From the IMG/VR virus record IMGVR_UViG_2534681834_000008: 8,247 bases of DNA; one strand, given 5' to 3'. Shown piece after piece: positions 6,292 to 8,247 of the stretch. How positions within the stretch are numbered: the first letter of the stretch is position 1; each line of letters opens with the position of its first letter. Below the pieces are notes generated by a model. It was not told the DNA's origin. It did no database searches and was given only the letters and a program-made list of their open reading frames with translations. The DNA comes from a virus (lineage: Duplodnaviria > Heunggongvirae > Uroviricota > Caudoviricetes). A program made the position numbers and the translations under genes.

Positions 6292-6702
6292 TTAGTGATT
6301 CAGGCCGTTACCGCGTCCGTCGAGAAAAACTTCTACGAGCAAATCACGGGTATAAGTGCGCTCGATGCCGCGATGCAGATAAAGCCGTCCGCGTAAATTA
6401 GCTGATGCAGTCCAGGTACCATCTTTGTGTTTGACCAGCATTCCTGGCATGACCGCACCGCGATTAACGGTCTGCGTTCCGTAATGTTGATGAACCATAA
6501 AAACTCCTGCCCGTAAGCTGGGCTGCTGAACATATAAAGACTTCTGCGCGTATTCAGGCGGTGGATGGCCGCCGGTTGTCATAACTAAGCCGCCTCGTTG
6601 AAGCGACTGAGGTATGAAGTGTTGAGTTGATTTCAGCTGGTCACACCGACGTTCACGCGTCCGCTTCACCCCTCGCACTCCCCGGAGCCTGCTGAAATTC
6701 AA
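6292..6702 (-). CDS. Hypothetical protein at the position lambda uses for kil (136 aa from the first ATG; about 96 aa if started at the internal ATG at 6582)
   Basis: ORF from the track. The C-terminal part (MPGMLVKHKDGTWTASANLRGRLYLHRGIERTYTRDLLVEVFLDGRGNGLNH) looks protein-like. The N-terminal 40 codons of the longest form are Arg-rich and low complexity, so the true start is uncertain. I could not match it to lambda Kil from memory. Confidence 0.5.
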   Translation of the reverse strand: MNFSRLRGVRGVKRTRERRCDQLKSTQHFIPQSLQRGGLVMTTGGHPPPEYAQKSLYVQQPSLRAGVFMVHQHYGTQTVNRGAVMPGMLVKHKDGTWTASANLRGRLYLHRGIERTYTRDLLVEVFLDGRGNGLNH

Positions 6703-6783
6703 GCTGCGGATCTAAGCGGTCATCGCAACGGTGAATCAGGTGATTGCCGTATCGTTGTGTTGTTGCGACATGGTGATAATAGC

Positions 6784-6819
6784 TATTGCTATTGATGATA
6801 TCAATACTTATTGCTATTG
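6784..6819. repeat. Direct repeats flanking a palindrome in the intergenic region (possible operator or protein-binding site)
   Basis: TATTGCTATTG occurs at 6784..6794 and again at 6809..6819, each itself a tandem of ATTGCT-like units. Between them is the 8-bp perfect palindrome TGATATCA at 6796..6803. A second small inverted repeat ATCGC-ATA-GCGAT lies at 6878..6890. Function unknown. Confidence 0.3.
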
Positions 6820-6944
6820 CTAGATGTGTTTTGATATTAAATATTTGATAGCAAAAAGAATTAATTTTGTGACTTGCATCGCATAGCGATAACTGAAGCG
6901 GGGTTGTGGTGGTTTTTTGAACGGTGTGTGTGATGAGGGGAGGC

Positions 6945-6982
6945 AAAAGAAAACCCGGCACGGTGGCCGGGACGTTTTATTT
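6945..6982 (-). terminator. Intrinsic terminator (bidirectional in appearance) directly downstream of the DUF4411-like gene
   Basis: GC-rich hairpin CCCGGC (6954..6959) / GCCGGG (6966..6971) with a 6-nt loop. On the minus-strand RNA it is followed by UUUUCUUUU (plus-strand AAAAGAAAA at 6945..6953). On the plus strand it is followed by ACGTTTTATTT (6972..6982). The hairpin begins 5 nt after the stop codon at 6977..6979. Confidence 0.65.
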
Positions 6983-7489
6983 CAAAGAAAAATTATGACT
7001 AGCGTATCTTGGAAGAAATTCATATAGTGTTAATGTCTTAACGCCGTGAGAAGCAGCAGCATCCGGGATCATTATTCTTTTTTTAGGTTTGCCACCGGAT
7101 GGTTTCTCATGGGTAATAATAGTATATCCATGTGTCATCGCATGGGCTATTAAAAAAGCATCTGCTTTTTCATGGCTTGCAAAATCAAACTTTGCCTTTT
7201 CGGTAACATCTAATTTAGTTGACCAATTTATTAACTTTGCATAATTTTCTATTGAACTATGCTCATCTTCGAAGAATGATGATGGTAACTCTTCTTTAAT
7301 CCATTTACACAATGGATCATCTTTTGCACATAGTTCTTTTTTTACAGCATTAATGCTATAAATCAGACCATTAATGTGTAAAGCGAGAAGAAAATCCCAA
7401 AATATTTTGCAATAATTGAAGTTATATGCAAAGTTTTTTGCCTCTATGAAGACATTACTATCAATTAAGAATTTTCCATTATGAATCAT
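6977..7489 (-). CDS. DUF4411-like protein, predicted PIN-like nuclease fold (170 aa)
   Basis: ORF from the track. N-terminal FLIDSNVFIEA resembles the first acidic motif of PIN-like domains, followed by FWDFL, G-IYSI-V-KEL, ADAFLIAHA and a C-terminal IMIPDAAASHGV, which together match my recollection of the DUF4411 family pattern. The start ATG at 7489..7487 overlaps the stop of the upstream peptidase gene as ATGA. The gene is visibly AT-rich compared with the Red genes. Confidence 0.7.
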   Translation of the reverse strand: MIHNGKFLIDSNVFIEAKNFAYNFNYCKIFWDFLLALHINGLIYSINAVKKELCAKDDPLCKWIKEELPSSFFEDEHSSIENYAKLINWSTKLDVTEKAKFDFASHEKADAFLIAHAMTHGYTIITHEKPSGGKPKKRIMIPDAAASHGVKTLTLYEFLPRYASHNFSLK

Positions 7490-8247
7490 AGAGATTCTCG
7501 TTTTTTATAAAATTCAACAACTGTATCTGCTTTTACATTTAGCAGTACGCCTGCTTCCCTTAATGGTAATTGTTGAGACATTGCTTTGGAAATTATTATA
7601 TTCGTAAGTTTTGGACTGTTACGAACAGGTAATGTGTTAAAGAAAGAACCACCATTGGATTCTTTTTTGGGCTTATTGTAAGCTTGATCTTTAATTATCT
7701 CCAAAGTGTTTCTTTCTATCAAATCTAATTGTAACGCTTTGATTGCACAAGCGAAATCACTAACCTTAAATAACTTAGAAACCTCTTTTACTCGATAATA
7801 ATTATTATCGCTGGATGCATTAAGCCAGAAAGATTTGAAGAGATTATCAGGCATTAAGATTTCAGCAGCAACTTTATTACAAAAAGATTCTATGTTTTTT
7901 TCTGTGTCCCACCCAGAGACTCCATCGACTCCAAGCCAAAGATGAGCCACCTCATGAAATAATGTAAATACCTGCGCAGATAACGCGTCCGAGCTATTTA
8001 CAAAAATGATCGGAGCAACGCTATCAGATATACAGAAACCACGAAACTCTCGCGTGTCAAGTTTTCTTTTATTATTATTACCCACAACACCATTCTTGAA
8101 AACTAATACGCCAGTGTCTTCTATTAGTTTTGCCACTTTAGAAAAATAGCTCTCAAAAGTGACATTTTTTATCTCTTTTTGTATATCAAAATGTATTGTG
8201 TTTGCTATGTCTGTAGCAACAACCTTATAATTTAATTTTCTATTAAA
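7486..8247 (-). CDS. ImmA/IrrE-family HExxH metallopeptidase domain protein, 5'-partial (gene continues past the window end)
   Basis: Contains FTLFHEVAHLWLG, the HExxH zinc-binding signature in the context typical of ImmA/IrrE proteins. The track ORF (7486..8136) starts at a GTG, but hand translation of the minus strand from 8247 shows 37 more in-frame codons with no stop (FNRKLNYKVVATDIANTIHFDIQKEIKNVTFESYFSK...). That is unlikely by chance in such AT-rich DNA, so the true start, and probably an N-terminal domain, lies outside the window. Confidence 0.75.
   Translation of the reverse strand, partial: FNRKLNYKVVATDIANTIHFDIQKEIKNVTFESYFSKVAKLIEDTGVLVFKNGVVGNNNKRKLDTREFRGFCISDSVAPIIFVNSSDALSAQVFTLFHEVAHLWLGVDGVSGWDTEKNIESFCNKVAAEILMPDNLFKSFWLNASSDNNYYRVKEVSKLFKVSDFACAIKALQLDLIERNTLEIIKDQAYNKPKKESNGGSFFNTLPVRNSPKLTNIIISKAMSQQLPLREAGVLLNVKADTVVEFYKKRESL

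Follow-up and report, generated by a model that had tools for sequence, protein, structure and literature searches.

The closest described relative of the gene pair treated here is VapBC52 of Mycobacterium tuberculosis (Rv2515c/Rv2514c), which was validated in 2019 as a toxin with its rescuing antitoxin (TASmania, PMC6504116) and has a published structure and biochemistry (Nucleic Acids Research 2026, PMC13273310). Our pair, an M78 peptidase gene followed by a DUF4411 gene, lies at the end of an 8,247-nucleotide stretch of DNA, IMG/VR record IMGVR_UViG_2534681834_000008, that was analyzed at full length and is called the window below. The window is the left arm of an Escherichia coli lambdoid prophage, with the gene order int, IS10, DUF4222 gene, TraR-like gene, Dam-type methyltransferase, exo, bet, gam, kil, and then the peptidase/DUF4411 pair.

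VapC52 is a PIN tRNase (PMC13273310). It is bound by VapB52 at a VapB52:VapC52 ratio of 1:2; the antitoxin needs its N-terminal domain to bind the toxin and blocks the active site with its C-terminal domain (PMC13273310). In response to single-stranded DNA (ssDNA), VapB52 removes its own N-terminal domain, an activity that H216A/H220A abolishes, and a conserved FR motif in the linker was proposed by the authors as the probable cleavage site (PMC13273310). Overexpression of VapC52 protects M. smegmatis from phage D29 (PMC13273310). The pairing of such a peptidase with a PIN protein had been predicted by comparative genomics in a three-component form, Xre + COG2856 + PIN (Makarova 2009, PMC2701414), and helix-turn-helix (HTH)-DUF955 + DUF4411.1 has been named as a predicted toxin-antitoxin system (Matelska 2017, PMC5499597).

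Both proteins of the window's pair are homologous to VapB52 and VapC52, and the pair is a further example of this known family; what is new is the host and the setting, an E. coli lambdoid prophage in which the pair occupies the rexAB slot. We think it probable that the pair is a prophage-borne type II toxin-antitoxin or abortive-infection module that is expressed in the lysogen and whose most likely effect is to abort infection by other phages.

Comparison with VapBC52

The window ends at 8247 inside the peptidase gene, whose complete sequence was taken from the prophages of E. coli strains CV839-06 (L001, integrated at icd) and IAI1 (L002, beside ybhC). A window coordinate x corresponds to L001 coordinate x + 2401. 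The full-length gene has 379 codons, of which 126 (378 nt) are past the edge, as had been expected of a gene cut at that point. The features of the pair within the window are as follows.

6977..7489, minus strand: predicted toxin gene, encoding a 170-aa DUF4411 PIN-like protein (Pfam DUF4411, 1.2e-37; PHROG 11126, 1.3e-67; VapC52 profile match)
7486..8247, minus strand: predicted antitoxin/sensor gene, 3' two-thirds, codons 127-379 plus stop, an open frame of 253 codons in the window running to the stop at 7486-7488
7486..7489, minus strand: ATGA stop/start overlap, read in the sequence as ...CTA TGA / ATG ATT...
7942-7956, minus strand: HEVAH (HExxH), residues 224-228 of the full protein
7888-7890, minus strand: third zinc ligand E246, in an ExxCN motif
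7915-7917, minus strand: S237, at the VapB52 cysteine-switch position according to the profile alignment
7460-7462, 7334-7336, 7160-7162 and 7106-7108, minus strand: D10, E52, D110 and E128 respectively, predicted from conservation to be the catalytic acidic residues

A sequence search of the Protein Data Bank (PDB) finds one entry with both partners, 9vzy, the VapB52-VapC52 complex of M. tuberculosis (related entry 9vzz), whose chains are a 393-residue 'HTH cro/C1-type domain-containing protein' and a 162-residue 'DUF4411 family protein'. The peptidase profile scores E = 4.1e-23 against 9vzy_A (VapB52) in a collinear alignment of positions 9-370 with 4-383, and E = 8e-7 as a single sequence. 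For the DUF4411 protein the profile scores E = 1.3e-13 against 9vzy_D (VapC52), and the single-sequence search E = 7e-6. The alignment pairs E. coli PDLR with VapB52 DFRR, HEVAH with HEFVH, and IESFCN with LEARCN. We depend on sequence profiles against PDB for this comparison, because 9vzy was not returned from the Foldseek PDB library, which runs to 2026-04-08.

The two systems have the same gene order and overlap, a DUF4411/PIN toxin with the same acidic residues (D10 here is D6 there), and an antitoxin of ~380-415 aa that is collinear through the N-terminal domain, a linker with [F/L]R, an HExxH...E...CN core, a helical subdomain, and a C-terminal domain. They are distant homologs, at ~20-25% identity, and the E. 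coli protein differs from the CHARACTERISED homologue in that the zinc-capping C229 of VapB52 is Ser237. The linker has L-R here versus F-R in VapB52, and the setting is the immunity region of an E. coli lambdoid prophage versus a mycobacterial chromosome. A further difference is that the N-terminal domain here has no Pfam HTH match. An HTH assignment for it was considered and rejected, the fold matches to DdrO and phage 186 CI being weak (prob ~0.15-0.2), and where we call this domain 'HTH-like' the label derives only from its collinearity with the N-terminal domain of VapB52.

For the DUF4411 protein, the Pfam match has 129.6 bits against a curated cut-off of 23.5, and an NCBIfam search gives no match. 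LIDSNVFI occupies residues 8-15 and so includes D10. The four acidic residues are invariant in 44 homologs (the homologs form 62 clusters) and are kept in 79-80 of 80 loci. The AlphaFold2 model has a predicted local distance difference test (pLDDT) score of 85.9, and its Foldseek matches in PDB are exclusively VapC/PIN toxins, at prob 1.0 with template modeling (TM) scores of 0.5-0.67, the top ones being VapC proteins of M. tuberculosis, Shigella, and Rickettsia.

The peptidase matches Peptidase_M78 at 8.5e-14 with 51.9 bits, above the curated cut-off of 22, and PHROG 2439 at 1.4e-52 over profile positions 125-366 of 367. The best NCBIfam model, the spr1629 repressor/antitoxin family, is below threshold at 25.7 bits versus a cut-off of 335. 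The portion within the window comprises a zinc-peptidase core of the ImmA/IrrE M78 type with a helical subdomain and a helical C-terminal domain; beyond 8247 there are an N-terminal 5-helix domain and a linker with the PDLR motif. The AlphaFold2 model (pLDDT 87) has the same layout, with five N-terminal helices, the linker, an alpha/beta peptidase core, and C-terminal helical bundles.

Conservation picks out the same sites. Homologs of the peptidase form 464 clusters, with W15, a PFGFLFL..PP segment, D78, R80, H224, E225, H228, E246, C249, and N250 invariant. The residues H224, E225, H228, and E246 are invariant in 50 homologs and also in 77/77 loci, as are the HExxH and ExxCN motifs (77/77 each). 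In the linker motif PD[F/L/M]R, which is PDLR at residues 77-80 of the E. coli protein and lies past the window edge, D and R are kept in 76/76 loci, and the residue between them, at position 79, is F in 58 loci, L in 13, M and C in 2 each, and Y in 1.

To look at the pairing in other genomes, one genome per species was scanned, giving at least 356 DUF4411 relatives, and the best 79 loci were examined. In each of the 78 loci whose sequence extends upstream, a peptidase homolog is found immediately 5' of the DUF4411 gene and on its strand; the remaining locus has no upstream sequence. The upstream open reading frame abuts or overlaps the DUF4411 start across the surveyed loci, and it is full length or nearly so wherever the contig permits; contig ends cut the peptidase in a few. 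The loci span Gamma-, Beta-, Alpha-, and Deltaproteobacteria, Actinobacteria, Chloroflexi, Spirochaetes, Chlorobi, Planctomycetes, Cyanobacteria, Acidobacteria, and others, and homologous pairs are carried by ~25 plasmids, of which 15 are conjugative, as well as by chromosomes of many phyla at loci outside prophages. The survey reproduces the predictions of Makarova 2009 (PMC2701414) and Matelska 2017 (PMC5499597). The E. coli gene essentiality work of Rousset 2020/2021 was also considered as a source on the pair and set aside, its toxin-antitoxin example being a different system. At 7486-7489, the overlap implies, judging from the reading frames, translational coupling of the putative antitoxin and toxin.

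The original prediction for this DNA was made from the letters of the window and its open reading frames. Its two minus-strand genes with a 4-bp ATGA overlap, its HExxH motif (HEVAHL) in the upstream gene and LIDSNVFI in the downstream one, and its ImmA/IrrE and DUF4411/PIN assignments are all borne out by the results above, and the neighborhood survey that it proposed returns the peptidase directly upstream in 78/78 loci. Its belief that the pairing had no demonstrated function is overtaken by the characterization of VapBC52 (PMC6504116, PMC13273310), and it had itself allowed that a well-characterized homologous pair would remove the claim of novelty. A mechanism in which a separate signal-activated protease cleaves a repressor to switch on a nuclease also disagrees with the homolog, where the protease is the antitoxin and cuts off its own N-terminal domain.

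Among the surveyed homologs there are some irregular forms. In a Candidatus Kapaibacterium genome bin (L064 3792-5486), the peptidase and DUF4411 homologs are in one stop-free frame, an arrangement that may be a natural fusion of antitoxin and toxin or a mistake in the assembly. On one 4.6-Mb contig or chromosome of Enterobacter kobei, DUF4411 is represented by fragments of 94 aa and 108 aa (P0038 and P0039), and a 170-aa E. coli protein (P0061) has a DUF4411 match over only 38% of its length with no Pfam match. Split and truncated DUF4411 genes would fit occasional inactivation of the toxin gene.

Other M78 peptidase and PIN systems

The VapBC52 family is a branch of a RosmerTA-like 'Zn-peptidase antitoxin' class. 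RosmerTA (RmrT/RmrA) resembles the pair in having an ImmA-type zinc-peptidase antitoxin, often with an N-terminal HTH, that is joined to a swappable toxin, and in being found in phages and prophages. Some of its members have proven anti-phage activity (Millman 2022; Ernits 2023, PMC10440598), and ImmA-domain antitoxins, including those with PIN-like partners, are in the RosmerTA zone of the NetFlax network (Ernits 2023, PMC10440598). The differences are that the RmrA models match only the peptidase core and do so weakly (13 models of PADLOC-DB v2.0.0, at 4e-8 to 2e-3, each over ~90-160 residues), that the DUF4411 protein has no RmrT model, and that the characterized RmrT toxins are of unknown function or membrane-depolarizing, not PIN nucleases.

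CapP/CapH, which regulates CBASS along with further immune operons (Lau 2022), also has an M78 peptidase, and CapP is both the best PADLOC match of the peptidase (capP, 4.5e-15) and, with IrrE (3dti) and PprI-ssDNA (8sln), among the best fold matches of its model, where it stands first (7t5t). CapP is an ssDNA-activated M78 peptidase that cuts CapH at F82|R83 beside the HTH domain (bioRxiv 10.64898/2026.05.16.725639). There the protease and its HTH substrate are separate and the output is an adjacent immune operon that is de-repressed, whereas here substrate and protease are fused and the proposed output is release of a bound toxin. This locus has no separate HTH substrate gene of the CapH type that would control an adjacent immune operon; the neighboring HTH protein is the prophage repressor cI, with an S24 domain.

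Canonical VapBC systems share the PIN-fold toxin. Their antitoxin is an 8-13 kDa RHH/AbrB/PHD protein, in contrast to the 379-aa multidomain protease here, and the toxin here belongs to the DUF4411 branch, which Pfam matches to PIN_3 only at E 0.2. ImmA/ImmR of ICEBs1 and IrrE(PprI)/DdrO of Deinococcus have the Peptidase_M78 fold and the HExxH...E zinc site, and in them an HTH-containing partner is proteolyzed upon DNA damage. These proteases differ in cleaving a separate repressor to switch genes on and in having no toxin partner. The peptidase here always accompanies DUF4411 in place of a separate cleaved repressor, and the adjacent cI is an unrelated backbone protein with its own S24 protease.

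The cassette and its slot in the prophage

The pair is a cassette of low guanine-plus-cytosine (GC) content set into a prophage backbone, and the features needed to follow its boundaries are these.

6972..8247 in the window, strand not applicable: low-GC (~33%) cargo cassette, from GC values and blastn breakpoints versus sibling prophages L082, L083, and L084
6944..6971, minus strand: intrinsic-terminator-like site, with a stem-loop at 6954-6971 and a U-tract at 6944-6953
6770..6878, minus strand: cluster of cI-operator repeats resembling the lambda left operator OL, with a promoter resembling the leftward promoter pL, from repeats and a promoter scan
L083 2287-3894, L084 1504-2920, L082 3198-3917: sibling slots equivalent to window 6972 onwards

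The GC content is 31.8% for the DUF4411 gene and 33.5% for the peptidase part, versus 52.2% for bet, 52.6% for exo, and 47% for the rest of the window. Pairwise blastn against the sibling prophages places the left cassette junction at window 6971/6972 (L001 9372/9373) and the right one at the cI stop codon (L001 11155-11157, ~window 8755), past the window. Upstream of the peptidase gene there is a 129-bp intergenic region, then cI, then a divergent cro-like gene. The cI repressor has 230 aa with HTH_3 and Peptidase_S24 domains (S24 at 1.3e-18). The cassette has these two genes only.

The terminator-like hairpin, CCCGGC-CACCGU-GCCGGG, has a 6-bp all-GC stem and a 6-nt loop followed by UUUUCUUUUG, and it begins 5 nt past the DUF4411 stop. 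Its folding energy of -11.8 kcal/mol (z = -1.4) is matched by 12 of 200 shuffles. We had considered the terminator as part of the cassette and rejected this, since homology with sibling prophages carrying other cargo reaches 6971/6972; the terminator is therefore backbone, closing the cI/cargo transcription unit whatever the cargo. On the minus strand between cI and the peptidase gene there are no terminator-like sites, and the 129-bp spacer has a weak promoter-like site, TTGACG-17-AACAAT (9/12).

On the other side of the terminator, operator repeats of the GCAATAGCAA type are found at 6780-6789, 6786-6795, and 6811-6820. With at most 1 mismatch, clusters of GCAATAGCAA are confined to the cI-cro region and L001 9181-9221 (window 6780-6820), and L001 9171-9219 repeats 49 nt of the intergenic region between cI and cro. 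In L001 the motif is counted 7 times versus 2.05 expected, a count that 0/200 shuffles reach, and in the window 5 times versus 0.89 expected, which 2/200 shuffles reach. The pL-like promoter, TTGATA-17-TATTAT (10/12) at 6804..6776, overlaps the repeats and is directed at kil/gam/bet/exo. Because the operator repeats and this promoter are on the kil side, the pair falls in the cI-to-OL interval, where lambda has rexAB. In the sibling L083, whose cargo is a SIR2 gene, the operator motifs are likewise between kil and the cargo.

The original prediction had read the pair as lower in GC than the Red genes and horizontally acquired, and the GC values and defined junctions agree with it. Its hairpin and U-tract are present, at a strength that is moderate and not strong, and its suggestion of more sequence beyond 8247 is right for the peptidase gene and wrong for a third cassette gene, the spacer and cI coming next. 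The placement in the lambda pL early operon, where ral and sieB are found, does not stand, the operator and promoter lying at 6770-6878.

The likeness to lambda RexAB and to BstA of Salmonella BTP1 is one of position only, directly 3' of the prophage repressor, before OL/pL, and with a terminator at the end; their sequences and domains are unrelated to those of the pair, and so are their mechanisms. The region from cI to N is a known mosaic hotspot of lysogen-expressed abortive-infection genes that holds rexAB and bstA (PMC8585504). Sampled siblings with the same type of cI carry three alternatives in the slot. The first is a 535-aa SIR2 protein (PADLOC PDC-S25, 2.7e-235), the second a 353-aa protein with an ASCH protein (PDC-M11A/B, 2.9e-133 / 6.8e-52), and the third a pair of unannotated open reading frames of 87 aa and 147 aa with no Pfam or PADLOC match, which is itself a candidate. 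By sequence comparison the slot is an exchange site for defense candidates, and the interval from the cI stop to the terminator is a useful place to seek untested systems.

This cI type is present in 719 E. coli genomes and the pair in 33, and the cI-type prophage backbone is in ~13% of complete E. coli genomes. The figure of 33, from 5426 genomes, counts those with at least 80% of the region 6600-8247. This 1648-bp region has 99.8-100% identity in the 25 complete E. coli genomes listed and occurs in at least 2 integration sites.

An autoregulatory operator was also considered for the peptidase gene and is not claimed. The candidate is a perfect palindrome, CAACAAT-A-ATTGTTG (7-1-7), at L001 ~11055-11074, overlapping the -10 element of the promoter-like site; shuffles of the E. 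coli upstream region reach palindrome arms of 8-9, which leaves the operator reading unsupported. This palindrome (TTCAACAATTATTGTTGTGC, L001 11055-11074) has a 90% identical palindromic copy 641 bp away at 11696-11715, inside cI, and the second copy could be chance or a second binding site.

Sibling prophages share 97-98% of the ~480-bp interval that separates kil from the cargo. Two long mechanical open reading frames on the minus strand, 6292-6702 (136 aa) and 6653-6961 (102 aa), overlap the stretch from kil to OL, where RefSeq has only a 68-aa kil. The ~480-bp interval may hold unannotated small genes or a regulatory RNA besides OL/pL.

Proposed function and its rivals

The toxin-antitoxin or abortive-infection reading, already put forward in the original prediction, is reasonable, and with VapBC52 as the guide it can be given as a sequence of steps. 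The 379-aa protein would bind and neutralize the translationally coupled 170-aa PIN nuclease, one antitoxin holding a toxin dimer through its N-terminal domain while the C-terminal helices occlude the active site. On a trigger, the M78 protease would cut its own linker at PD[L/F]|R, which is L79-R80 here, and the freed toxin would cleave RNA, by analogy tRNA, and arrest the cell. Given the cI-to-OL slot of rexAB and bstA, expression in the lysogen and abortion of other phages' infections seem most likely, with stabilization of the prophage as a by-product. Toxicity, neutralization, self-cleavage, the tRNA target, lysogen expression, and the anti-phage role, which we consider likely, are thus expectations drawn from analogy. 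The trigger is the weakest of the steps, ssDNA having been shown for VapB52 and CapP while the gating Cys is Ser here.

Several points weigh against this proposal. The functional steps are taken by analogy from a homolog of ~20-25% identity, and at the cysteine-switch position Ser is near-invariant in the family, being present in 75/77 surveyed loci in a motif G[V/L/I]S[D/N]. With Cys replaced by Ser, the gating step of the published VapB52 model is not transferable, and the demonstrated auto-inhibition and ssDNA gating may not carry over to the E. coli pair. An ssDNA trigger also poses a problem of self-immunity, since an induced prophage that replicates and makes Exo, Bet, and Gam makes ssDNA of its own. 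Co-expression of VapC52 with VapB52 gave M. smegmatis no protection from D29, so that the protection seen in the model system is that of the overexpressed toxin (PMC13273310). Pfam HTH models do not match the N-terminal domain in any of 50 family members, PADLOC has no family, and in particular no RmrT model, that matches the DUF4411 protein at E up to 1, and upstream palindromes at 74 homologous loci are not enriched (best mean arm 5.18 versus 5.06 in shuffles). The 50,697 deposited phage genomes in INPHARED hold one distant homolog only, on an unannotated fecal contig. Among sequenced phages that match the window, 7/8 cover only the kil-side flank, so none of them has the pair.

The cysteine switch defines the published regulatory model and not the family homology, and the Ser-for-Cys exchange in most of the family means that the published activation model covers a minority variant only. 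IrrE and some CapP homologs also do without the cysteine switch, and IrrE is active without ssDNA, though ssDNA stimulates it (bioRxiv 10.64898/2026.05.16.725639). We offer, tentatively and with no great expectation that it is right, that the E. coli clade is gated by something other than an ssDNA cysteine switch, such as IrrE-like substrate stabilization, zinc availability, or a phage protein. Another kind of trigger could also account for a module that does not fire on the ssDNA of its own prophage. Should the pair, in its rexAB slot, turn out to be expressed from the cI operon, it would amount to an exclusion system of the lysogen that has a distinct trigger and perhaps a means of self-immunity. 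The E. coli/lambda-type setting is a tractable one for testing phage defense by an intact VapBC52-class module.

The most serious competitor, which we nevertheless regard as unlikely, is a plain addiction or stabilization toxin-antitoxin that retains the prophage, or just the cassette, and has no role versus other phages. The validated pair of M. tuberculosis (PMC6504116) is consistent with it, as are the failure of intact VapBC52 against D29 just mentioned, the homologous pairs on plasmids and at non-prophage loci, and the window's own strain, in which xis is broken by IS10 and the element accordingly persists as a fixed island. Addiction does not account for the slot, which is the position of rexAB and bstA and in siblings holds the SIR2/PDC-S25 and PDC-M11 defense candidates. 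RosmerTA-class systems with the same type of antitoxin defend against phages, and an ssDNA-responsive sensor protease exceeds the needs of simple addiction.

Less probable again is a module tied to the cycle of its own prophage, in which damage or induction would activate the protease and the nuclease would reshape host or phage RNA pools or abort induction, exclusion not being the main role. That IrrE, CapP, and VapB52 respond to ssDNA or DNA damage speaks for this, together with the location of the cassette next to an SOS-cleavable cI (HTH + S24) and at a distance of one promoter from the Red/Gam genes, whose products make ssDNA ends and protect them. The same cI backbone in 719 genomes, however, carries unrelated cargo or small open reading frames, which makes the pair dispensable for the phage cycle, and the pair is conserved as a unit outside prophages.

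We give very little credence to the peptidase being an ImmA/ImmR-type anti-repressor that cleaves the XRE-family cI or another repressor in an Xre + COG2856 + PIN circuit. The order of XRE repressor, M78 peptidase, and PIN does resemble the predicted three-component arrangement (PMC2701414; PMC5499597), and both ImmA and IrrE cleave separate HTH repressors. Here, though, cI is backbone, with the cassette junction exactly at its stop codon; it carries its own S24 autopeptidase domain and no visible PD[F/L]R motif, and it is found ~20x more often without the pair than with it. In 78 loci the peptidase travels with DUF4411 and has its own N-terminal domain and PD[F/L]R site. That the pair is an inactive relic, a passive passenger of the prophage, is equally hard to credit, for although DUF4411 genes are split or truncated in Enterobacter kobei and the window's prophage is damaged by IS10, both reading frames are intact with every catalytic and ligand residue present, and the 1648-bp region is nearly identical in its 25 genomes and at least 2 integration sites.

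Two observations concern the prophage at large. The immunity region together with the pair is 99.8% identical in L001 (at icd) and L002 (at ybhC), which have different integrases, and this block of immunity genes and cargo therefore moves between lambdoid backbones. The IS10 copy of the window is at 1323-2649, with its transposase open reading frame at 1429-2637 on the plus strand, and is flanked by the 9-bp target duplication TGCTAAGTC. In comparison with CV839-06 its site is inside the excisionase gene xis (L001 4872-5108), and the prophage of the window's strain, having xis split by IS10, is probably unable to excise.

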